A DNA stretch of 64,000 nucleotides from contig JAISAB010000001.1 of assembly GCA_031266915.1 (NCBI GenBank), forward strand, positions 37,994-101,993, read 5' to 3'. The notes under the pieces were generated by a model. The model ran no database searches. It saw only the letters and a list, made by a program, of their open reading frames with translations, and had not been told where the DNA came from. The first letter of the stretch is position 1, and every line of letters begins with the position of its first letter. The DNA is from Rickettsiales bacterium (lineage in GTDB: Bacteria > Pseudomonadota > Alphaproteobacteria > Rs-D84). Of the stretch, positions 4,611 to 52,745 are shown piece after piece. The position numbers and the translations under genes were made by a program.

Positions 4611-5600
4611 ATGAACGGATGGATAATCTTGGACAAGCCGTCAGGCATGACCAGCCGCGCCGCGGGCGGGCGCGTCATGCGTATGTTTGGCGCCGAAACG
4701 TTCGGCCATATCGGAACCTTGGACCCGATGGCGTCGGGATTGCTGCCGATTGCGCTGGGCAATGCCACCAAGATGATTCCTTTTTTCGAGAGCGAAGAGC
4801 GTAGAGCGCAGAGCGAAGGTTCCGCCGCTTCGCGGCAGAGCGCAGGTCGCAAGTCGCAGGTAGAAGATGTTGATAATAACGAACCATCTACGCTCTGCGC
4901 TCTTCGCTCTTCGACCTCTAAAGAATATCTATTCAGCGTTCAGTTCGGATTCGAAACTGATACGCTGGATATTACCGGAACGGTTGTCAAGGAAACCAAT
5001 GTTGTCCCATTGCCGGCTCAGGTTATGGCAGCGTGCGCCGCACTGACCGGAACGATTTATCAAACGCCGCCGGCCTATTCCGCGGTGCATGTCGGCGGGC
5101 GGCGCGGCTATGAACTGGCGCGCGCGGGCAAAGAATTCGAAATTCCGCCACGCCCGGTTACCATCGACGCGCTGGAATTGCTGGACGCGGGCAGAAAATC
5201 CTGGCAATTCCGCGTGGTGTGCGCGCCCGGAACATACGTTCGCGCCATTGCCCGCGACATCGCCGCGATGTGCGATACGGTCGCAACCGTGGACATGATA
5301 CGGCGCCTGCGTACCAGCGGCCTGGATATAAAAGATGCGGTCGGGCTTGATTTTTTAGAAAATCTGTTTCATAATGGCGGGAACTTCGAAGATTATTTGA
5401 AGCCTGTGGATTTCGGACTGGGGGACATTCCGGTTCTGAATCTGAACGACGCGGACGCCGGTTTATATAAACAGGGCGGCTTTGTCGAAATTGCGGCGGC
5501 GGGCGAACCGGGATTGGTTCGGGTCTTTTCAAACGGGCGGTTCATCGGAATCGGAACGTTTGACGGCAACCTGTTGAAGCCGAAACGAACACTTAACTAA
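4611..5600 (+). CDS. truB: tRNA pseudouridine(55) synthase TruB with an in-frame 127-bp palindromic insertion
   Basis: [13 protein letters not shown] and [18 protein letters not shown] motifs; start moved to Met11 (4611) to avoid overlap with mutS. Confidence 0.85.
4789..4915. repeat. Family D palindromic element (gagcgaagagcgtagagcgcagagcg ... cgctctgcgctcttcgctcttcgac) inside truB
   Basis: Arms are reverse complements; copies at 27350-27485 (in queH) and 30911-30995 (fabG-mnmG spacer); fragments at 2521-2560 and 35581-35618. Confidence 0.75.
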
Positions 5601-5973: not shown

Positions 5974-6250
5974 GTCATTGCGGGCGCAGCAAAGCAATCC
6001 AGTATAAATGGGTCTTTGGGGGCCGAATGACAGACTTCGTCTTGGAGAGACAACCCCCAAAGATAAAAACCGCGCTTAAATACAAAGGCGGTTGGAGGTT
6101 AAGAACTATCAAGTGAATAGTGCGGTGTATTCGGCAAGCCTTATTCCACCGGCCCTCCAACCGTAGTTGGAGCGTTTAACGTCAGCGCTGACGCACTTGT
6201 GGAGTTCTTAAACTCCGTGATGACAATTCGTCACCACGAAAAGTATTATA
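5974..6250. repeat. Family F ~250-bp structured dispersed element (ggcggttggaggtt ... ccctccaaccgNNggttggagcgtttaacgtcagcgctgacg)
   Basis: Three related copies (5974-6250, 37385-37560, 52411-52745) sharing gtcattgcg start, aaaaaccgcgc, ggcggttggaggtt, ccctccaacc and a gtcagcgctgac palindrome. Confidence 0.6.
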
Positions 6251-11037: not shown

Positions 11038-11610
11038 ATGAAAAACATAAAATCGCTGATATACGAAATCCGCGGCGCTCAGGTCATGCTTGACGGCGAC
11101 TTGGCCCAATTGTACGGAATGGAAGCAAAACGACTAAATGAATCAGTCAAACGCAACATCGGTAAATTCCCACCGGAATTTATGTTTCAAATTACATTGG
11201 GAGAATGGGATGACTTGAAGTCGCAAATTGCGACCTCAAGTTTGAATAACATTTCAATCTTGAAGTCACAAATTGTGACTTCAAGATGGGGAGGCCGTAG
11301 AAAGCCGCCTTTCGTCTTTACCGAACACGGTGTCGTCATGCTGGCGTCCGTTCTGAACAGTCCGGCCGCCATCCAGATGAATATAGCAATAGTCAAATCC
11401 TTTATAAGCATGCGCGACTACGTTTCCCAGCCGATTCACAAAAAATTGGAAGACTTGGAAAAAATTCTTATGCTGCATATCGACGACACAAGTTTGAATT
11501 TTGCCGGCCATTCCGATGCAATCAATGAGATTATTGACAAATTGAACAACATGATGGAACATCCGCGCCCAAAACGGCAAATAGGATTTAAACTGGAAAA
11601 TTCGAAATGA
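11038..11610 (+). CDS. ORF6N-domain protein (phage/plasmid-type DNA-binding domain) inserted in the efflux operon
   Basis: IRGAQVMLDGDLAQLYGMEAKRLNESVKRNIGKFPPEFMFQ...LKSQIVTSRWGGRRKPPFVFTEHGVVMLASVL matches the ORF6N consensus; AT-rich; stop and start overlap the neighbours. Confidence 0.6.
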   Translation: MKNIKSLIYEIRGAQVMLDGDLAQLYGMEAKRLNESVKRNIGKFPPEFMFQITLGEWDDLKSQIATSSLNNISILKSQIVTSRWGGRRKPPFVFTEHGVVMLASVLNSPAAIQMNIAIVKSFISMRDYVSQPIHKKLEDLEKILMLHIDDTSLNFAGHSDAINEIIDKLNNMMEHPRPKRQIGFKLENSK

Positions 11611-13993: not shown

Positions 13994-14000
13994 AACACTA

Positions 14001-14102
14001 GCGGATAGTCAATAGTCATTGGTCTATAGTCAATAGTTAATAAAGCCGTCGGCTTCGCCGACACATTCACTACCAACTAACGACTATAGACTACTGACTA
14101 TG
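14001..14102. repeat. Family A element with central terminator-like hairpin (gccgtcggcttcgccgac)
   Basis: atagtcaatagtcattggtctatagtcaatagtt ... aactaacgactatagactactgactat. Confidence 0.6.
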
Positions 14103-14353
14103 TAAATAACCTCTGGATTTATCTGGCAATTGCGGTATAATGTTCGTCGACAGGCGCGTTGCCTGTTATGGAATTAACAATCCATCACCAAAAGGGTCTT
14201 GAACAGACCATAAACCTTCACCCAAAAGGGGTGGAGGGCGGCGTTATAAGGCTTGCCGAAGGCGTTGCACTATACTTTTGGATAGTTTGTTAATCTCCAT
14301 CCCACCTTGATTTTTAAAGGTGGTTTTCTTTTTGAAAAAAAAAGGGGGATTCG

Positions 14354-14584: not shown

Positions 14585-14692
14585 CGATCAGCAAACATCA
14601 AATATGCGTTTATTTAAGATTTATGATTTACGGATTTAAGATTTAGTTCAAGTGACAGGAATATATCTTTTTGGTCCCAAAACCTCAAGACT

Positions 14693-14765
14693 CGTCATTC
14701 CCGCTTGGACCACCCACGAAAAACAGTCGTTTTTCGCGGGGCCTGGTGGCGGGAATCCAATGTAT
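14693..14765. repeat. Family H 68-bp hairpin element
   Basis: cccgcttggaccacccacgaaaaacagtcgtttttcgcggggcctggtggcgggaa; near-identical copy, reverse-complemented, at 28086-28152. Confidence 0.7.
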
Positions 14766-15238
14766 TCAAGCTGTGAACAATGCCCGTATGATGAATACAT
14801 TGGATACCGGCCTTCGCCGGGGCTAAAGGCACCCGAGGTGACAATTTTTATTGTCATCGCTTCGCGATGCTTTACGTACCTGCGCTAGGCGTGACAAAAG
14901 TTTGTTTTAATTTAAGGCACATCCCTGTCGGTTGAGCGATAAACTATACGCTATCTGCCATATGCTATTTTTTCCTATTTTTCCATTGTGCTGAAAATTC
15001 GCACGCGCTATAGTTGTCTTGTCGACGGGTGTTCCGTCGATGGGGTCTGATAACCCTTTATTGTGCGTCGTGAATAATCACCGCGCTTTTGCGCCGTTTT
15101 TATTTCGACGAAAAACAACTCCTGACTCGGTCAGGAGGGCGCGATATATCTGAATAAGCGCGCAATTCACAATATTGTTATCAGCCTCCTGACCGCCTAT
15201 TTTCGGCGGTTTTTACTTAACTGCAACAGGAGGATATT

Positions 15239-15857: not shown

Positions 15858-15884
15858 AAAACCGGCAAAAAAGCCGGTTTTTTA
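15858..15884 (+). terminator. Rho-independent terminator
   Basis: accggcaaaaaagccggt hairpin followed by tttttt. Confidence 0.6.
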
Positions 15885-15887
15885 ATA

Positions 15888-15982
15888 AATAGTCGTTAGT
15901 CTATAGTCATTAGTGAATAGTGCTTAGTTTATAGTGCATAGTTAATAGTTCACTAATCACTATGCACTATTCACTAGTGATT
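15888..15982. repeat. Family A element
   Basis: atagtcgttagtctatagtcattagtgaatagtgcttagtttatagtgcatag...cactattcactagtgat. Confidence 0.55.
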
Positions 15983-16330: not shown

Positions 16331-16344
16331 ATTTTCGGGGAGAT

Positions 16345-16470
16345 TAATAGTTAGTCAACAGTCATTGGTCTATAGTCAGTAGTGTATAGCAAATAGCACA
16401 TACAATTAGGTGGTTATTTCAGATTTATGATTTAAGATATAAGATTTAGGCGACATTAAATCTTAAATTT
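16345..16470. repeat. Family A unit followed by family I gatttatgatttaagat repeats
   Basis: tagtcaacagtcattggtctatagtcagtagtg; agatttatgatttaagatataagatttag...taaatcttaaattt. Confidence 0.5.
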
Positions 16471-18586: not shown

Positions 18587-18649
18587 TTAATATTCCTGGG
18601 TGCTTTACGGGCATAGAATAGAAAATCAGACCGATTCGGTCAAGCAGAT

Positions 18650-18750
18650 TAGTCAATAGTGGATAGCAAATAGCATATAGAAAATAACAAAATTCTAAAC
18701 AAAATACTACCGACTATAGACTACTGACTAATGACTAATGACTAATACTA
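18650..18750. repeat. Family A element
   Basis: tagtcaatagtggatagcaaatagcatatag...ctaccgactatagactactgactaatgactaatgactaat. Confidence 0.55.
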
Positions 18751-27291: not shown

Positions 27292-28000
27292 AAAAATCCG
27301 CCTTGTTTTGTTGTCGTGCTGCGCGCCGTGTTCCTGCGGCGCTATAAAAGAGTTAGTAGAGTGTAGAGCGCAGAGCGAAGGTTTCGCCGCTTCGCGGCAG
27401 AGTGAATGTCGCAGGTCGCAGGTAGAAGGTGTTGATAATGACGAACCACCTACGCTCTGCGACCTGCGATCTACGCTCTTCGACTTTATCGTCTTGTTCT
27501 ATAACCCTAATATTTATCCCGATACCGAATACCAGAAACGGTTGGCGGAACAAATCAGATACTGCGAATCATTGGATGTGAAATATGCCGTCGGCGATTA
27601 TGACCACGCCGCGTGGCTGAATTCCGTGCGCGGCCTAGAATCAGAGCCTGAGCGTGGCAAGCGCTGCACGCAGTGTTTCCGCCACAGATTTCGTTTCGCA
27701 AAACAGTGGGCGATGGAAAACGGATACAACGCTATCGCGTCCGTTCTGGGCGTGTCACGTCACAAAGACCAGGCACAGGTCGACAGCGCGGCGCGGGAAG
27801 AAATAGGGAACGGGGAACCCGCCTTCGCCATCCACCTTCGCCGAGGCTACGGGGGACAAGAGGCTACGGCGGGCAGGCAGGAACAAGGAATAATTTATCT
27901 GCCTATCAAATTGGATGAAAGTCTGCGCCAGGAAATTAGCAAAAAGGCCGGCTTTTACCGCCAGAATTACTGCGGCTGCGAGTTTTCAATGCGAAAATAA
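27275..28000 (+). CDS. queH: Epoxyqueuosine reductase QueH (DUF208) with two in-frame repeat insertions
   Basis: LLSCCAPCS, LFYNPNIYPDTEY, RCTQCFRHRF, YRQNYCGCEFS hallmarks of QueH; insertions at 27350-27485 (family D) and 27805-27895 (family E). Confidence 0.7.
   Translation: MDAMHEKIRLVLLSCCAPCSCGAIKELVECRAQSEGFAASRQSECRRSQVEGVDNDEPPTLCDLRSTLFDFIVLFYNPNIYPDTEYQKRLAEQIRYCESLDVKYAVGDYDHAAWLNSVRGLESEPERGKRCTQCFRHRFRFAKQWAMENGYNAIASVLGVSRHKDQAQVDSAAREEIGNGEPAFAIHLRRGYGGQEATAGRQEQGIIYLPIKLDESLRQEISKKAGFYRQNYCGCEFSMRK
27350..27485. repeat. Family D palindromic element inside queH
   Basis: agagcgcagagcgaaggtttcgccgcttcgcggcagag...ggtagaaggtgttgataatgacgaaccacctacgctctgcg; co-linear with the truB copy. 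Confidence 0.75.
27805..27895. repeat. Family E element (ccttcgccgaggctacggcgggcaggcaggaacaaggaa) inside queH
   Basis: Reverse complement of 40094-40186; shares the ggaacaaggaacagg core with mutS 2213-2283. Confidence 0.65.
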
Positions 28001-28017
28001 GCCTTTTGATTATATAT

Positions 28018-28085
28018 CAATTAAGAATTAAAAGTAAATGGGCCGCGCAGCGGCAAGCCGCAATTCATAATTCTTAATTTTTAAT
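28018..28085. repeat. Family B aattaagaattaa element
   Basis: caattaagaattaaaagtaaatgggccgcgcagcggcaagccgcaattcataattcttaattttta. Confidence 0.55.
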
Positions 28086-28152
28086 ACATTGGATTCCCGC
28101 CACCAGGCCCCGCGAAAAACGACTGTTTTTCGTGGGTGGTCCAAGCGGGAAT
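28086..28152. repeat. Family H 68-bp hairpin element (reverse orientation)
   Basis: Reverse complement is ~identical to 14693-14765. Confidence 0.7.
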
Positions 28153-29115: not shown

Positions 29116-29895
29116 ATGAGCATTTTTTCTTTGGATGGAAAAGTAGCACTTGTCACCGGCGCGTCGGGGGTAATCGGTGGCGCTGTTGCGCGCGCGATGT
29201 ATGAAAACGGCGCGACCGTTGTCTTGAATGGGCGCAACACCGAGAAGCTGAACGCTTTGAAAGAAAACTTGACAAACGGGGGGGGGGTACAAACTTCCCT
29301 TTCTTCCCAAGAAGCACATACTGTCGCATTAAGTCTGATGGATGTCGACGCGACGAAAAAATTGGTCAAGTCCGCGACCGAGTTGACCGGAAAAAACATC
29401 GATATTTTAGTGAATGTGGCGGGGCTGCATCAGTTGAAAGTTTTTGGAAAAATATCCAAAGACCTGCTGTACAACATTATGAATATAAATTTTACGATTC
29501 CGTTCATTCTGTGCCAAGAGGTTATGCCCGCGATGGTCCAAAACAAGTTCGGTCGGATTATCAATTTTTCATCCGTTGCGGCGCACGGCGCGGCCGGGCA
29601 GGCGCATTATAATTCGTCGAAATCCGCGGTCGAGGGACTGACATGCTCGTTGGCGTCGAACGAAAACTTCGTCAAAAACGGCGTCACAATAAACGCTATC
29701 GCGCCCGGAATCATCGATTCGGATATGTCGAAAATGATTCGCGGCAAGGCCAAGGAACGCAACCTTATGATGATTCCTATGGAACGTTTCGGCCGGCCCG
29801 AAGAAGTCGCCGGCGCCGCCGTCTTTTTGGCCAGCAATGCCGCAAGTTATATAAACGGCCAGATTATTCGCGTCGACGGTGGAATGGTCCGGTAA
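29116..29895 (+). CDS. FabG-like short-chain dehydrogenase/reductase (paralog), contains a G10 homopolymer
   Basis: GKVALVTGASGVIGGAVA Rossmann motif, YNSSK catalytic motif; poly-G at 29278-29287. Confidence 0.7.
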   Translation: MSIFSLDGKVALVTGASGVIGGAVARAMYENGATVVLNGRNTEKLNALKENLTNGGGVQTSLSSQEAHTVALSLMDVDATKKLVKSATELTGKNIDILVNVAGLHQLKVFGKISKDLLYNIMNINFTIPFILCQEVMPAMVQNKFGRIINFSSVAAHGAAGQAHYNSSKSAVEGLTCSLASNENFVKNGVTINAIAPGIIDSDMSKMIRGKAKERNLMMIPMERFGRPEEVAGAAVFLASNAASYINGQIIRVDGGMVR

Positions 29896-30910: not shown

Positions 30911-30995
30911 AGTTCGAAGAGCGCAGAGCGTAGAGCGCAGGTGGAGTATATTGATAATAAGGAACCACCTTCGCTCTACGCTCTGCGAATTTCGA
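30911..30995. repeat. Family D palindromic element (intergenic copy)
   Basis: caagttcgaagagcgcagagcgtagagcgcaggtggagtatattgataataaggaaccaccttcgctctacgctctgcgaa. Confidence 0.7.
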
Positions 30996-31007
30996 TCTGA
31001 GGAAAAA

Positions 31008-36191: not shown

Positions 36192-36935
36192 ATGAAAATA
36201 ACATTGACGCCTGAAATTTATTTTACAAAAGTGCCGCCTACGCTGGATATGAACGTGCGCAGCGAATTGTACAGCACCAACGAATTCACTTTCGCAGTGG
36301 CGGTCATCCTGTCGGCCCAGGCCACGGATAAAAAGGTGAACGAAGTCACGCCCGCGCTATTCGCCGAAGCCCCGACGCCCGAAGCGATGCTGATATTGGG
36401 CGAGGACGGCCTGAAAAAACATATCAAGGTTATATCTTTTTTTAACAACAAGGCGAAAAATATTATCGGACTGGCGCAAATGCTTGTCTCCCCCCTCTTG
36501 GGGGGGAATACCCGCGGAGCGGGGGAGGGGGAGCTCCCCCCAGTCTCGCTCCGCGAGACAGCCCCCCTCAAAGAGGGGGGCACATGGCGCTTTCCGGACG
36601 AATATCATAACCAGCGGGCGCTGATGGCGCTGCCCGGAATCGGGCAAAAGACCGCCAACGTCGTCATGAACGTCTTATGGGGCGCGCCGATGATTGGCGT
36701 GGACACGCATGTTTTCCGCAATGCGCATCGCTACGGATGGGTCGGCGCATCCGACGACACGCCCGAAAAGGTCGAGGCGAAACTGCTGAAACTGATTCCG
36801 AAAAAATACCACGCGATGGTCAACCACGTGATGGTCCTGCACGGGCGTTATACCTGCAAGGCATTGCGACCGCGATGCGCGGACTGCCCAGTTGCGCAAT
36901 GGTGCAACGCGCCTGACAAGAATCTGCCGATATAA
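36192..36935 (+). CDS. nth: Endonuclease III (Nth) with ~100-bp in-frame G/C-rich palindromic insertion
   Basis: HhH motif LPGIGQKTANVVMNVLWG and FeS cluster C-x6-C-x2-C-x5-C at the C-terminus; insertion at 36486-36585. Confidence 0.8.
   Translation: MKITLTPEIYFTKVPPTLDMNVRSELYSTNEFTFAVAVILSAQATDKKVNEVTPALFAEAPTPEAMLILGEDGLKKHIKVISFFNNKAKNIIGLAQMLVSPLLGGNTRGAGEGELPPVSLRETAPLKEGGTWRFPDEYHNQRALMALPGIGQKTANVVMNVLWGAPMIGVDTHVFRNAHRYGWVGASDDTPEKVEAKLLKLIPKKYHAMVNHVMVLHGRYTCKALRPRCADCPVAQWCNAPDKNLPI
36486..36585. repeat. Family J G/C-rich palindromic element (gtctcccccctcttggggggg ... cccccctcaaagaggggggcac) inside nth
   Basis: Related cccccctcttgggggg segment at 52490-52512. Confidence 0.6.
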
Positions 36936-36941
36936 TTCAAT

Positions 36942-36974
36942 ATCGAATTACGAGTCACGAATTACGAATCTCGA
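36942..36974. repeat. Family C cgaattacgagtcacgaattacgaatc repeat
   Basis: Copies at 2586, 37604, 41862, 45208, 50491, 52951; usually next to terminator hairpins. Confidence 0.55.
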
Positions 36975-36975
36975 A

Positions 36976-37560: not shown

Positions 37561-37633
37561 ACAAACTGATTATATCAGAATATAAGACAATTACAAATAA
37601 AATATCGAATCACGAGTCACGAATTACGAATCA

Positions 37634-37662
37634 CGAAAAAAACCGCCGAACGGCGGTTTTTT
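37634..37662. terminator. Bidirectional terminator downstream of pheT
   Basis: aaaaaaaccgccgaacggcggttttttt. Confidence 0.6.
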
Positions 37663-42077: not shown

Positions 42078-42905
42078 TTGGCGATGAACCAGAAAAAAAT
42101 ATCTTCCAAAGTGCTGTCTTATGCGAAATCGGCGCTGGCCGCGGCTGTTTTGCCGGTCTTTTTGATATATGTCATGATTGACAAGCCCGATTACAAGATT
42201 ATCGGCGCCATGTCGCACATTGTCCTGCCGGCGGCGAACTGGGTCGGCGATGTCGTGTCGTGGCCGATACGGGCCGTGGCCAGCGGCGTGGCGGGAATAC
42301 GCGAGCTGTCCAATCTGCGCGGCGAGAACGAAGAACTGCGCGCCAAATTGGACCAGGCCCTGCGCATGCGCAACGAATGCGGCGTGGCAATTTCGGAAAA
42401 CCAAAGGCTGGCCCGAGAGCTGGACATGGTCCGCGCGTCGCCGCAAAAGGCGGTCGCTGCGCTGGTTTCCTATAACAACGACGCGTTTCACCACAGCACG
42501 TTTTTCATAGACAAGGGCGCGCGCGCCGGCATCGAGCCCGGCATGGCCGTCGTTTCGTTTGACGGGCGGCTGGCGGGCATCGTCATCGACGCGGGGCCGA
42601 CCTTTGCCAAGGTCCGCAGCCTGACGGATTCGAAATCGAACATACCCGTCCGCGTCGCCGGGTCCGAGGTCTACGGTTTTCTGCAGGGCAGCGGTTCCGG
42701 CGACCCGACGATGGGATTTTTCAGCGACCCTGAATTCCAGCCAACCCGGGGCTTGAAACTGGTCACCAGCAACATCCGCGGCGTGCTGCCCGACGGAATA
42801 ATCGTGGGCGAGATGTCCAATTCGACGGACGCGTCCGTTCTGCGCCCGACGCGCATGTCCAGCGTTATGGTTCTGCAGTTCGACGGCAAGGACAAATACA
42901 AATAG
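42078..42905 (+). CDS. mreC: Rod shape-determining protein MreC
   Basis: N-terminal TM, coiled coil LRGENEELRAKLDQAL, beta-rich C-terminal domain; followed by mreD-mrdA-rodA. Confidence 0.8.
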   Translation: MAMNQKKISSKVLSYAKSALAAAVLPVFLIYVMIDKPDYKIIGAMSHIVLPAANWVGDVVSWPIRAVASGVAGIRELSNLRGENEELRAKLDQALRMRNECGVAISENQRLARELDMVRASPQKAVAALVSYNNDAFHHSTFFIDKGARAGIEPGMAVVSFDGRLAGIVIDAGPTFAKVRSLTDSKSNIPVRVAGSEVYGFLQGSGSGDPTMGFFSDPEFQPTRGLKLVTSNIRGVLPDGIIVGEMSNSTDASVLRPTRMSSVMVLQFDGKDKYK

Positions 42906-43005
42906 TGAATAGTGATTAGTGCATAGTTTATAGTGACTAGCGGGCTAGCTACAACACTGCAAACTAAACACTAAGCACTATAAACTAAACACTATAAACT
43001 AATGG
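42903..43005. repeat. Family A element
   Basis: atagtgaatagtgattagtgcatagtttatagtgactag...cactataaactaaacactataaactaatgg. Confidence 0.55.
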
Positions 43006-43442
43006 TTTACTTGAAACGCCTTTTTCCGTTCTTCGCTGTGCTGTTGCTGTGGCGGCTGTCGTTTCCGTTTTGGAATCCGGGCGGCATTCTGGCCCTGATT
43101 CCGATTTTTTATTATTCCTTTATCAAACCTGTCGACTGGTTTGTCCTTTTCGCGGCCGCCTTTTGTTTTCTGATTGACTACAAGTCCGACACGCTGCTGT
43201 TCTGGACGGCCGTCTATTGCTTTTTCTACTCCGTCAACGGCTTTCAGAACTTCGTCGATTTGACGCGGCAGAAAAACGATGGACTGCCGGTGTTTATGGC
43301 GTATTTCGGCGTCCCGGCGCTGATTCTGGCCGCCGTGGGATGGACCTGGGTCGGCTTTATCCGCGCCGCGTGGCTGCTGTGCTGGCTAAGCGTCCTATAC
43401 ATTCCTTTCGCGGCGCTGGCAAAAAGGGTGAACGATGATTGA
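43002..43442 (+). CDS. mreD: Rod shape-determining protein MreD (polytopic membrane protein)
   Basis: 146 aa, five hydrophobic segments; position between mreC and mrdA. Confidence 0.6.
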   Translation: MVYLKRLFPFFAVLLLWRLSFPFWNPGGILALIPIFYYSFIKPVDWFVLFAAAFCFLIDYKSDTLLFWTAVYCFFYSVNGFQNFVDLTRQKNDGLPVFMAYFGVPALILAAVGWTWVGFIRAAWLLCWLSVLYIPFAALAKRVNDD

Positions 43443-50449: not shown

Positions 50450-50490
50450 CACGGCCCGCGCGTACGACCTTGAATTGATGTTTTGTCATC

Positions 50491-50549
50491 TTACGAGTCA
50501 CGAGTTACGAATCACGAAAAAAACCGGTCTTTTTGCCGGCTTTTTAATT
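50491..50549. repeat. Family C repeat plus weak hairpin/T-run
   Basis: cttacgagtcacgagttacgaatcacgaaaaaaaccggtctttttgccggcttttt. Confidence 0.4.
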
Positions 50550-52332: not shown

Positions 52333-52410
52333 CAATTAACAGAGCAGAGATAACAGTTAACAAATAATAAAGAATAGAGAATAAAGAATAAATAACATTA
52401 TCACCAGTGT

Positions 52411-52745
52411 GTCATTGCGAGGGGCGTCAGCCCCGCGGCAATCCAGTAAAACAAATTCGTGCGCCCAATGGGCGCACTCTCTTTTTTTCTCCCCCCTCTT
52501 GGGGGGCAAATGCAAAATAATCACAAATTAGGTCTTTTGGGGTCGAATGACACACTTATATCTTGGAGAGAAATAACAACCCCCAAAGGTAAAAACCGCG
52601 CTTTGCAAATTAAAGGCGGTTGGAGGTTAGTTACTACTATATAGAATAGTGCGGTGTTTTTGGACAAGTCCTTATGGCACCGACCCTCCAACCGATGGTT
52701 GGAGCGGTTTAACGTCAGCGCTGACGCTATATAGAAGGGTAACTA
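52411..52745. repeat. Family F structured element (long copy, with nested cccccctcttgggggg segment)
   Basis: gtcattgcg...ggtcttttggggtcgaatgacac...aaaaaccgcgctttgcaaattaaaggcggttggaggtt...ccctccaaccgatggttggagcggtttaacgtcagcgctgacgc. Confidence 0.6.

Follow-up and report, generated by a model that had tools for sequence, protein, structure and literature searches.

Why does a conserved enzyme gene carry, in frame, a chain of hairpins built largely from runs of G and C? The question is raised by the endonuclease III gene (nth) of the window, by which is meant the whole 64-kb stretch of Rickettsiales DNA that was analysed; the metagenome-assembled genome (MAG) from which it comes has about 51% GC. 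The open reading frame (ORF) encodes 247 amino acids, matches the Pfam HhH-GPD family with an E value of 6.7e-24 and E. coli Nth (2abk) with an E value of 6.7e-43, and encloses the whole of a 99-nt element (Table 1). A preliminary description had reported a G/C-homopolymer-rich palindrome, inserted in frame in endonuclease III, at 36486-36585. The segment is present as quoted and the ORF translates through it, with 36486-36584 as the repeat unit proper when delimited by nhmmer. The term palindrome is apt in that the segment is G/C-rich and folds strongly (RNA, -77 kcal/mol, z=-4.9 against shuffles; DNA, -38.4 kcal/mol, z=-5.8), but a chain of five separate hairpins describes it better. The window holds 46 runs of five or more G or C, seven of which fall inside these 99 nt. 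Small GC-rich perfect hairpins, mostly terminator-like, are about 4-fold in excess across the window in a hairpin census.

Table 1. Coordinates of the nth gene, the inserted element, its hairpin modules and the related solo hairpin, numbered from the first nucleotide of the window.
Feature	Position	Strand	Basis
nth (endonuclease III), host of the element	36192..36935	+	ORF, Pfam, 2abk match, intact catalytic residues and cysteines
Five-hairpin palindromic element 'type A', 99 nt, in frame, residues 99-131	36486..36584	+	nhmmer E=1.7e-20 against family profile; folding
H1, CCCCCC-TCTT-GGGGGG, constant C/G-run terminal hairpin; (T)GTC tag before it at 36485-36488	36490..36505	+	
H2, CCCGC-GGA-GCGGG, variable module; stem differs between copies, always paired	36511..36523	+	
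H3, GGGGGAGCTCCCCC, constant central palindrome with AGCT centre	36527..36540	+	
H4, GTCTCGC-TCC-GCGAGAC, variable module	36543..36559	+	
H5, CCCCCCTC-AAA-GAGGGGGG, constant C/G-run terminal hairpin; conserved CACA after it at 36581-36584	36562..36580	+	
Solo H1-like hairpin, TCTCCCCCCTCTTGGGGGG, 19 nt, same as 36487-36505	52488..52506	+	exact match; profile match weak, E=1.3

The translated insert reads VSPLLGGNTRGAGEGELPPVSLRETAPLKEGGT. The HMMER match to E. coli Nth comes in two pieces, with residues 24-100 of the query corresponding to E. coli 22-98 and residues 140-243 to E. coli 107-208. Therefore, about 31 additional residues lie directly before the LPGIGQKTANV helix-hairpin-helix (HhH) motif, which bears out the earlier placement of the insert between the region upstream of the HhH and this motif. 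In an AlphaFold model of moderate quality (mean pLDDT 67.8), residues 100-133 alone fall below a pLDDT of 50, and they have no secondary structure. The catalytic residues Lys153 and Asp171 and the four cysteines of the 4Fe-4S cluster are present and are invariant across the family alignment; given that these residues are intact, nth is not a pseudogene.

The window also contains a short relative of the element. The 16-mer CCCCCCTCTTGGGGGG, which extends to the 19-mer given in Table 1, has an exact second occurrence where none is expected by chance, in agreement with the related segment that had been described near 52490. This solo hairpin is intergenic, adjoins the 3' side of a terminator-like hairpin and is some 40 nt away from the CGTC-type REP at 52411-52444, and no repeat of that context was found elsewhere within the window. 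A profile search of the 64 kb found no second full copy of the element, such that the solo hairpin is its sole relative there; dispersal, as described below, is seen in relatives.

The element is ordered as (T)GTC-H1, H2, H3, H4 and H5-CACA. Among copies, H1, H3 and H5 are constant, and the stems of H2 and H4 vary yet stay complementary. MAFFT fails to register the H2 and H4 stems, given their variable length, and the stems were therefore measured directly with shuffle controls. Perfect stems of 5-8 bp are present in 22 of 24 H2/H4 modules, with a mean of 5.96 against 2.81 +/- 0.14 in shuffles, and at least nine different H2 stems occur among the copies. Compensatory changes are also seen between orthologous nth copies, as in the L001 contig, where H4 reads GTCGCGC-TTT-GCGCGAC, a double compensatory change relative to the H4 of the window.

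The right half of the element is a diverged inverted version of the left half, and the two halves join at the AGCT centre of H3, which is also the position of the DUF559 cargo in a queA cassette of the MAG WRCC01. The halves thus act as imperfect terminal inverted repeats, and the copy in mnmG has a perfect terminal inverted repeat of 25 nt. The (T)GTC tag precedes H1 in ten of 12 copies, TGTC opens H2 in eight of 12, and H4 closes with GACAG in most, followed by H5 and CACA. With (T)GTC at the start of H1 and H2, and GAC(A) or CACA at the end of H4 and H5, the tags point outward as in head-to-head dimers. The runs range from C5 to C8 and from G5 to G9 among paralogous copies.

The insertion is not specific to this genome. 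The same element sits at the same nth junction in L001/P0002, which is 84% identical to the window Nth outside the loop, and in WRCC01/P0009, which is 77% identical, and it is dispersed in other genes. In the comparison of Nth orthologues that the earlier account had proposed, the element is absent outside a narrow clade; its other carriers are moderately related sequences, not distant taxa. The spacing from FFNNK to LPGxG is 36-38 amino acids in distant Nth, 42-47 in most of the clade and 69 here. A metagenome scan for Nth relatives gave the spectrum of loop lengths and new insert types, and it turned up no carriers closer than the L001 and WRCC01 set. In other lineages this loop of Nth is occupied by different, unrelated G/C palindromes (types B, C and D). 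Among non-carriers the closest are P0003 and P0004, with 85-87% identity when the loop is set aside, and their loops are ordinary and non-palindromic; a clean empty site was not found in non-carrier nth, where a different loop of 33-60 nt stands in place of a precise gap. The gene order around nth differs among carriers. A neighbor-joining tree of loop-masked Nth was poorly resolved, and pairwise identities and synteny were used instead; within the limits of that tree, a single ancestral insertion in Nth followed by several losses may account for the distribution.

Between the window and L001, identity within the element is 90.9% at every codon position, and in the rest of nth it is 79.4% overall and 59% at third positions. 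These codon-position identities, taken with the different reading frames of the element among copies, show a conservation of the nucleotides rather than of the protein.

The pattern from H3 to H5 was searched for in 185,579 species genomes and is present in only 14 stretches, eight of them in WRCC01 and two in the MAG JAISSM01. A profile search of those pattern loci recovered seven full copies, one truncated copy and three half copies; for WRCC01, the loci retrieved hold seven full, one truncated and two half copies. One contig, L004, terminates within a copy. The host genes in WRCC01 are nth, tatD, PFOR, mnmG, miaA, gatB, rsmE and tgt, and in each the Pfam domain runs on across or beside the insert and the ORF is kept. 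The host ORF is open in all 12 copies examined, and host ORFs read through the element in two of the three frames, with the frame differing between copies. The nth and mnmG copies of one genome share about 55 identical nt, and eight unrelated genes have near-identical constant blocks. No direct repeat that would mark a target-site duplication flanks the 12 copies, which show just a tendency to CTT before GTC. A scan of viral contigs gave no matches, and thus no sign of phage carriage.

The element is in sense orientation in all eight genes that were identified. This bias is not due to stop codons, given that 18 of 33 frames are open in antisense as compared to 22 of 33 in sense, nor is it due to the replication strand, given that GC skew is positive at six copies and negative at six.

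Half-elements also occur at the ends of a coding cassette. The queA gene of WRCC01 is interrupted by a left half (L), then a DUF559 domain (PF04480, E=1e-31) and then an inverted left half, all in frame. The ruvX gene of another MAG carries a DUF559 that is 61% identical to the one in queA, with the same end architecture. Pfam finds just Queuosine_synth and DUF559/MTES_1575 on the queA fusion, with no signature of an intron or an intein. When the window and all loci were searched in six frames with a DUF559 profile, the only matches were the two nested cassettes in queA and ruvX, and the 64-kb window has no DUF559 gene. C/G-run inverted repeats bracket the ORF in five of six DUF559 genes examined, two of the six flanks having been picked because the ends of the protein looked hairpin-encoded; L104 lacks a bracket, and the brackets of L101 and L102 resemble the type-B ends of Nth loops. 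The 99-nt element joins L to a right half (R) that is itself a diverged and inverted form of L. The queA cassette pairs L with inverted L, and the ends of the ruvX cassette are R-like. Given these different arrangements, the 99-nt form is no simple internal deletion of either cassette. DUF559 has been classed in the PD-(D/E)XK clade with Vsr and the homing endonuclease I-Bth0305I (PMC3424549; PMC2677866).

These observations must be weighed against other readings. The hairpin chain could be kept for a role in the mRNA, as a stabilizer against RNases, a translational pause that aids the folding of domains or a binding site, rather than as a result of selfish mobility. The consistent sense orientation, unexplained by stop codons or GC skew, would suit such a role, as would the compensatory changes that preserve hairpins, the very stable RNA fold and the fact that the element is more conserved than adjacent synonymous sites. 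However, Rfam finds no family at threshold over the element, the best being whalefall-1 with 18 bits against a cut-off of 37, and the host genes are functionally unrelated and have close relatives without the element. Half-elements in both orientations as the ends of DUF559 cassettes are the behavior of a DNA element, and the contig break inside a copy is what repeats would give; a role in the mRNA is therefore considered unlikely. The preliminary description drew attention to slippage in the C6-7 and G6-7 tracts, which in its strongest form would make them a contingency switch, with frameshifts silencing and restoring nth, a gene for mutation avoidance. Slippage is an inherent risk of homopolymer runs of 6-7, and run lengths do vary among paralogous copies. 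Yet the suggestion finds no support in the sequences compared: the window and L001 have the same tract lengths although 41% of their third codon positions differ in nth outside the element, and none of the copies examined has closed its host ORF. The hosts are core housekeeping genes, unlike typical contingency loci, and the Nth protein cluster holds one sequence variant only, so that a switch of this kind is very improbable.

A further possibility is that the element is a cluster of the CGTC/TGTC-tagged REPs of Alphaproteobacteria, which include Rickettsia RPE-4 and RPE-6, generated or moved by the machinery that serves those REPs, with DUF559 as a mere neighbor. Such REPs are small tagged hairpins that predominate in Alphaproteobacteria, where they form inverted dimers and clusters, and some lie in frame in DNA-repair and tRNA-modification genes and encode 20-82 amino acids; no dedicated transposase has been identified for them (Di Nocera et al. 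2013, PMC3733652). The outward-facing tags of the element's hairpins resemble those of head-to-head dimers, canonical CGTC REPs are present in the window at 14692-14772, 28080-28152 and 52411-52444, and a left half adjoins a canonical CGTC REP in JAISSM01. CGTC REPs are defined by a terminal CGTC, TGTC or CCTC tag on one side of each hairpin, stems of 8-9 bp that open with A-T pairs, loops of 4-5 nt and a CCA tail (PMC3733652), whereas the stems here are 5-8 bp of G/C only, with loops of 3-4 nt and no CCA tail, and the five hairpins recur together as one fixed unit. The canonical REPs of the same window have the stem, loop and tail that the nth element lacks and look quite different from it, and we consider its membership among them improbable. 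The palindromes could instead have been built in situ, with the Nth loop as a hot spot for template switching or snap-back synthesis, and with convergence or gene conversion behind the likeness across genes. At least four palindrome types occupy this loop in related lineages, and in non-carriers another loop stands in its place instead of a clean gap. Stems can also be kept perfect, with no need for selection, by quasi-palindrome correction. However, the stretch shared by nth and mnmG and the constant blocks shared by eight unrelated genes rule out convergence, and the pattern is nearly absent from the other genomes searched. An in situ process is a plausible contributor to the upkeep of the H2 and H4 stems, and it has very little probability as the sole cause.

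The segment in nth is thus very probably a dispersed selfish palindrome carried in frame. In the fuller form of this reading, which is probable as a whole, it is a selfish palindrome like RPEs and miniature inverted-repeat elements (MITEs), forms a probably disordered and tolerated loop and is plausibly tied to the DUF559 cassettes. The Rickettsia palindromic elements RPE-1 to RPE-10 (Ogata et al. 2000, 2002), as summarized in PMC10969869, are likewise dispersed palindromic repeats of about 100-150 bp in an alphaproteobacterial genome, often in frame in unrelated housekeeping genes and translated as an extra peptide compatible with the fold, and their means of mobilization is given as unknown. 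The 99-nt palindrome shares with that class its strong structure and its in-frame presence in conserved genes, nth here and eight genes in WRCC01, without disruption. It is likened to RPEs by class, not by an RPE consensus sequence, and it differs from them in its G/C-homopolymer hairpins, its non-Rickettsia genome of about 51% GC, its five-hairpin build, in which two of the modules are hypervariable and compensated, and its varying reading frames among copies. No report of a link between RPEs and DUF559 cassettes was found in the literature searched. Bacterial MITEs (PMC10969869) are also small, multicopy and strongly structured, with terminal inverted repeats and a larger partner that shares their ends, for which the queA and ruvX cassettes are candidates. 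The element departs from MITEs in that no target-site duplication was seen and in that its copies are located within genes, not chiefly in the spaces that separate genes. Its candidate partner codes for a Vsr-like endonuclease domain and not a recognized transposase, and DUF559 is at most a putative transposase or homing enzyme.

The Vsr-like (EDxHD) homing endonucleases, such as I-Bth0305I and those of 'fractured genes' (PMC3239194, PMC2677866), similarly place an ORF of the PD-(D/E)XK Vsr clade inside conserved genes of DNA and RNA metabolism. Those enzymes are carried by group I introns or inteins, or they divide the host gene in two, whereas the DUF559 ORF is fused in frame and bounded by hairpins, outside any recognizable intron or intein, and the copy in the window has no ORF of its own. 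An organellar parallel also exists. The GC clusters, double-hairpin elements and 'byp' elements in mitochondria of yeasts and other fungi are likewise G/C-rich hairpins that move about in a genome of alphaproteobacterial ancestry and can lie in protein-coding genes. The likeness to the nth element is one of general description; the fungal elements differ in that their genomes are organellar and AT-rich, and in that the ribosome skips over some of them instead of translating them.

We infer both the mobility of the element and its mechanism from sequence patterns. A non-autonomous repeat of the RPE or MITE kind would have reached fixation in an Nth loop that is permissive to it, where its 33 codons would yield a Gly/Pro/Ser-rich, probably disordered loop between the helix at 84-99 and the HhH region, with the enzyme presumably staying functional despite it. 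In-frame copies would survive because hairpins made solely of G and C seldom give stop codons. In the least certain step, the half-elements would serve as terminal inverted repeats for a small cassette that codes for the DUF559 (Vsr/PD-(D/E)XK-like) endonuclease, and the 99-nt form would be either a cargo-less derivative or scar of that cassette or a landing pad targeted by it. Repair of endonuclease-initiated breaks, with gene conversion or copying of a homing-like kind, might then drive the spread in place of a classical transposase. All-sense derivatives would follow, because a cassette bearing an ORF survives in a gene only in sense orientation. That DUF559 is the mobilizing enzyme of the palindrome family is possible, and we hold it tentatively. 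Held with yet more reserve is the broader proposal that DUF559 genes within C/G-run hairpin inverted repeats form an unrecognized class of mobile cassettes, which insert in frame without an intron or intein and decay into, or home into, 'protein-coding palindromes' of about 100 nt. The class of in-frame repeats itself is already known from Rickettsia RPEs and from intragenic REPs with GTAG or CGTC tags; what appears to be new is the five-hairpin architecture, together with the tie to DUF559. An earlier description of DUF559 or Vsr-like cassettes with inverted-repeat ends was not found in the literature searched, which does not in itself prove novelty.

Palindromic repeats in frame in Rickettsia housekeeping genes have been known since 2000, and neither their mode of movement nor the reason for their tolerance by proteins is settled. 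The present family offers a modular unit with two hairpins whose sequence is free to change while their pairing is always kept, a pattern suggestive of machinery that reads structure or of mutation that restores it. The strict sense orientation, unexplained by translation, is a second handle on in-frame repeats, and the matching ends around the DUF559 ORF in queA and ruvX provide a concrete candidate for the mobilizing activity. For the annotation of MAGs, such inserts inflate and split domain matches, as with HhH-GPD in two pieces here, and such repeats break assemblies, as in the contig that stops inside a copy. If true, the proposal would supply an enzyme that mobilizes in-frame repeats of the RPE kind, and it would assign a biological role to DUF559, an orphan family of very wide distribution.

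The endonuclease III gene (nth) of the window is intact and carries, in-frame, a palindromic unit of five hairpins. The sequence that the preliminary description had quoted as a palindrome within this gene was found in-frame at 36486-36585, and the translation offered for it is exact, corresponding to residues 99-131 of the product (NCBI MDR1337466.1, record 'MAG: Rickettsiales bacterium'). That product matches Pfam HhH-GPD (E=6.7e-24), with weaker matches to HhH and EndIII 4Fe-4S, and E. coli Nth (2abk, E=6.7e-43). The HMMER match to E. coli Nth falls into two blocks, query 24-100 with E. coli 22-98 and query 140-243 with 107-208, and about 31 extra residues relative to E. coli Nth lie directly upstream of LPGIGQKTANV, where the insert had been placed. 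Lys153 and Asp171 correspond to E. coli K120 and D138, and Cys222, Cys229, Cys232 and Cys238 to the cluster ligands (an offset of +33). Given that these catalytic and cluster residues are all invariant across the Nth family alignment, the gene looks functional. An AlphaFold2 model generated with a 26-sequence alignment is of moderate confidence (mean pLDDT 67.8). The insert, residues 100-133, is its sole long low-confidence, structure-free stretch, predicted between helix 84-99 and the helices running into the HhH motif, which is consistent with, rather than proof of, a tolerated, disordered surface loop.

As single-stranded DNA, the 99-nt element folds as five chained hairpins (H1 to H5), not as one long palindrome, with (T)GTC before the chain and CACA after it. 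Compared with shuffles, the fold has z=-4.9 as RNA (-77 kcal/mol) and z=-5.8 as DNA, and the element holds 7 of the 46 runs of five or more G or C in the 64-kb window. Its two halves are imperfect inverted repeats of each other and join at the AGCT centre of H3. The related segment reported near 52490 does recur, as a 19-mer, TCTCCCCCCTCTTGGGGGG, at 52488-52506, with 0 such repeats expected by chance. No Rfam family matches over the element; the halves (36486-36536 and 36534-36583) reach 18 and 14.8 bits against whalefall-1, below its gathering score of 37, and probably reflect composition or a hairpin artefact. Viral contigs scanned for the element gave 0 matches.

Coordinates of the element, its host gene and related features (window positions unless a locus or genome is named)
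Feature	Location	Strand	Details
nth (endonuclease III) ORF	36192..36935	+	247 aa; Pfam and E. coli Nth matches
H1	36490-36505		C6-TCTT-G6
H2	36511-36523		CCCGC-GGA-GCGGG
H3	36527-36540		GGGGGAGCTCCCCC
H4	36543-36559		GTCTCGC-TCC-GCGAGAC
H5	36562-36580		C6TC-AAA-GAG6
Type B palindrome	Nth loop of L004, L006, L038		TTCCCCTCCTGTGGAGGGG...GGGGTGGT...ACCACCCC...CCCCTCCACAGGAGGGGAA
Type C palindrome	Nth loop of L033		
Type D palindrome	Nth loop of L046		
Type-A copies, WRCC01	nth, tatD, PFOR, mnmG, miaA, gatB, rsmE, tgt		host genes
queA half copies, WRCC01	L097 3520-3572 and 3991-4040		inverted to each other
DUF559 proteins with hairpin-type peptide ends	P0128, P0130, P0131, P0142, P0146, P0152, P0154, P0158, P0161, P0185, P0197, P0230		
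GGGGCGCAAATATGCGCCCC-type hairpins, WRCC01	L087:1810-1831, L088:3391-3410, L089:4655-4672, L087:3074-3092		
Canonical CGTC REPs	14692-14772, 28080-28152, 52411-52444		
7-nt-period repeats (examples)	36940-36975, 37600-37640, 50485-50520, 1063-1165, 13998-14110, 15875-15955, 16344-16400, 18649-18746, 42888-43018, 4781-4925, 27358-27479, 30911-30998		36940-36975 directly 3' of nth
Shared intergenic segments	52381-52580 vs 6011-6037; 6110-6154 vs 14236-14280 vs ~52630-52680		
GTC...GAC hairpins (examples)	14048-14062, 11220-11234		14048-14062: GTCGGCTTCGCCGAC
G10 homopolymer	29278-29287		longest mononucleotide G/C run of window

The five-hairpin (type-A) element occupies the identical nth junction in two relatives, L001/P0002 and WRCC01/P0009 (loci L002, L003 and L086). 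The spacing from FFNNK to LPGxG is 36-38 residues in distant Nth, 42-47 in most of the clade and 58-81 in nine loci. Among the orthologous nth copies, H1, H3 and H5 are almost constant; H2 and H4 vary yet remain paired. The H4 stem reads GTCTCGC/GCGAGAC in the window, GTCGCGC/GCGCGAC in L001 and GTCGGC/GCCGAC in WRCC01, and the H2 stem CCCGC/GCGGG in the window and GTCGCCC/GGGCGAC in WRCC01. In other lineages different G/C-run palindromes (types B, C and D) occupy the same loop, all of them strongly folding (down to z=-10.4).

The presence of the type-A element is patchy across the phylogeny. Outside the loop, window Nth is 85-87% identical to the non-carriers P0003-P0006, 84% to the carrier P0002 and 77% to the carrier P0009, and L033 and L038 are 86% identical, yet their elements differ. 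Carriers do not share one gene order around nth, and an upstream DUF5662 gene is common to L001 and the non-carrier L106 but absent from the window. A neighbor-joining tree of Nth is poorly resolved and fits either one gain with losses or several gains. The loops of the closest non-carriers (33 and 60 nt) are ordinary, fold weakly and have no similarity to the element, which leaves neither a clean empty site nor a target duplication to reconstruct.

The unit is dispersed inside many housekeeping genes of related genomes, always read through and always in sense. When the loci compared were scanned for the motif, WRCC01 proved to have another full copy in-frame in mnmG, with its first ~55 nt identical to the WRCC01 nth copy and a 25-nt perfect terminal inverted repeat; the L004 contig end falls inside another copy. 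The pattern GGGGGWGCTCCCCN{12,40}CCCCCTCAA, scanned over 185,579 species genomes, matched 14 stretches only, eight in the MAG WRCC01, two in the MAG JAISSM01 and four elsewhere that appear to be chance matches or members of another family. An nhmmer profile made from the copies confirmed those of the pattern scan and added three half copies; within the 64-kb window its sole matches were the nth copy (E=1.7e-20) and, weakly, the hairpin at 52488. The host ORF reads through every copy; two of the three frames are used among the copies, and in some the frame changes partway through the element. Both JAISSM01 copies lie inside putative ORFs. The WRCC01 mnmG gene (L002/L089) also has a second in-frame site, where the protein segment ...HPWFSSPPLEGCPKGGVVYPNF... 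resembles the product of the left half of type B. The rsmE copy (L096:2500-2560) is without H5; in its place the sequence continues as another kind of G/C hairpin stretch, CCCCCCGACCCGGGGCCCCCGCGCAATCAAAGATTGCGTGGGGTGGG, suggesting that element types have become nested or have recombined. A separate small WRCC01 repeat family consists of the recurrent perfect hairpin GGGGCGCAAATATGCGCCCC and its variants.

All eight copies within identified genes are in sense orientation (two-sided binomial probability ~0.008). Stop codons do not account for this, given that 18 of 33 frames would be open in antisense copies versus 22 of 33 in sense, nor does the replication strand, since local GC skew, taken over 8 kb and noisy, is positive at six copies and negative at six. 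Across 12 copies, 22 of the 24 H2 and H4 modules have perfect stems of 5-8 bp and loops of 3-4 nt, with a mean perfect stem of 5.96 bp versus 2.81 +/- 0.14 in shuffles. H2 stems come in at least nine versions and H4 stems in roughly as many, and identical modules reappear in varied combinations; in H2 and H4, structure rather than sequence is conserved. In the element, window and L001 agree at 90.9% of sites in each of the three codon positions, versus 79.4% overall and 59% at third positions for nth outside it. Nucleotide-level constraint, homogenisation by other copies or a later acquisition leaves this kind of pattern; protein-level selection does not.

Half-units also bound DUF559 cassettes in related genomes. 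Within WRCC01 queA, two inverted half copies (H1-H2-left half of H3, ~50 nt) lie 420 nt apart. The sequence between them codes for a DUF559 domain (PF04480, E=1e-31; MTES_1575 weaker) that is in-frame with Queuosine_synth and divides the Queuosine_synth match in two. A 61%-identical DUF559 is in-frame inside ruvX of another MAG (P0122 = MCL2338662.1, locus L100), and that cassette ends as in queA: C/G-run hairpin, variable hairpin, G-run-CTT, cargo, then C-run, variable hairpin and C/G-run hairpin. Most other DUF559 relatives are free-standing, of 110-140 aa, and many start or finish in hairpin-type peptides. C/G-run inverted repeats bracket three of the four free-standing genes examined (not L104), where L101 and L102 are a biased sample, picked for their protein termini, and L103 was not picked that way. 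The ends of L101 and L102 resemble the type-B ends of Nth loops. In unrelated phyla, many free-standing DUF559 ORFs start or finish in peptides of the kind expected from translated C/G-run hairpins (such as SPSPQSPPLKGGEE, HPPLSPLPSREGK and SLSLEGRGQGEGD), suggesting that in many bacterial lineages the ORF calls extend into palindromes on either side. Besides the queA and ruvX cassettes, no DUF559 gene was found in the 64-kb window or in the other loci compared. The element joins a left half to a diverged right half, the queA cassette has a left half and an inverted left half, and the ruvX cassette ends are right-like; a simple deletion in either cassette would therefore not give the 99-nt form.

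The window contains several other repeats. Its CGTC/TGTC REP-like hairpins, with a CGTC tag, a stem ATTCCCGC...GCGGGAAT beginning with A-T pairs and a CCA tail, are probably the 'family F' of the preliminary description. The first two canonical CGTC REPs in the table, which are unlike the element, are inverted twins (73 nt, 99%), both with a nested inner hairpin. In JAISSM01, a CGTC-type REP directly adjoins a half-element (L094:4740-4790). Runs of 7-nt-period repeats (CGAATTA/CGAGTCA; ATAGTCN/TTAGTGN; AGAGCGC/AGGTCGC; AATTAAG) are a striking genome-wide trait of intergenic regions, often as inverted arms flanking terminator-like hairpins, in several families of 5-12 copies each. Short segments common to intergenic regions, such as AATAGTGCGGTGT...GGCAAGCCTTAT, may represent a small RNA gene or a further repeat family. 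Over the whole window, perfect GC-rich hairpins with a stem of at least 6 and a loop of 3-5 number 57 versus ~14 in mononucleotide shuffles, a ~4-fold excess, and several are of the GTC...GAC type.

The element appears to be selfish and non-autonomous, of the Rickettsia palindromic element (RPE) or MITE kind, with dispersal documented in relatives rather than in the 64-kb window. Retention for a function at the RNA level, a minor possibility, explains the whole pattern less well, as does generation of the palindrome in situ. Rickettsia RPEs are established in-frame palindromic repeats (PMC10969869), and intragenic GTAG/CGTC REPs, likewise in-frame, occur preferentially in genes for repair and tRNA modification, where they encode 20-82 aa (PMC3733652). 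The element works like both, but its stems (length and composition), loop size and tail depart from the CGTC family definition. Membership of the CGTC-type REPs, with REP-type mobilisation as another minor possibility, is also a poorer account of the whole. The G/C tracts had been described as slippage-prone; their equal lengths in the window and L001 argue against frequent fixed slippage, and neither that reading nor a slippage switch is supported.

The unit is probably translated as a disordered loop of Nth. DUF559 cassettes may mobilise or seed it via endonuclease-initiated repair, a link documented in relatives rather than in the window, and the sense-only orientation may be inherited from cassettes able to survive in genes solely in sense. 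Two alternative directions can be proposed, from cassette to scar or by homing of the cassette into the H3 palindrome. DUF559, Vsr and the group-I-intron homing endonuclease I-Bth0305I are classed in one PD-(D/E)XK clade (PMC3424549), and Vsr-like endonucleases are an accepted homing family of introns, inteins and 'fractured genes' (PMC2677866, PMC3239194). A literature search of incomplete coverage returned no earlier account of hairpin-ended DUF559 cassettes or of their in-frame nesting. In short, the feature is real and its class, 'protein-coding palindromes', is already known. What takes it beyond a routine repeat is its hypervariable but compensated modules, its strict sense orientation, the way in which different elements recurrently use one Nth loop and, most of all, its connection with DUF559.
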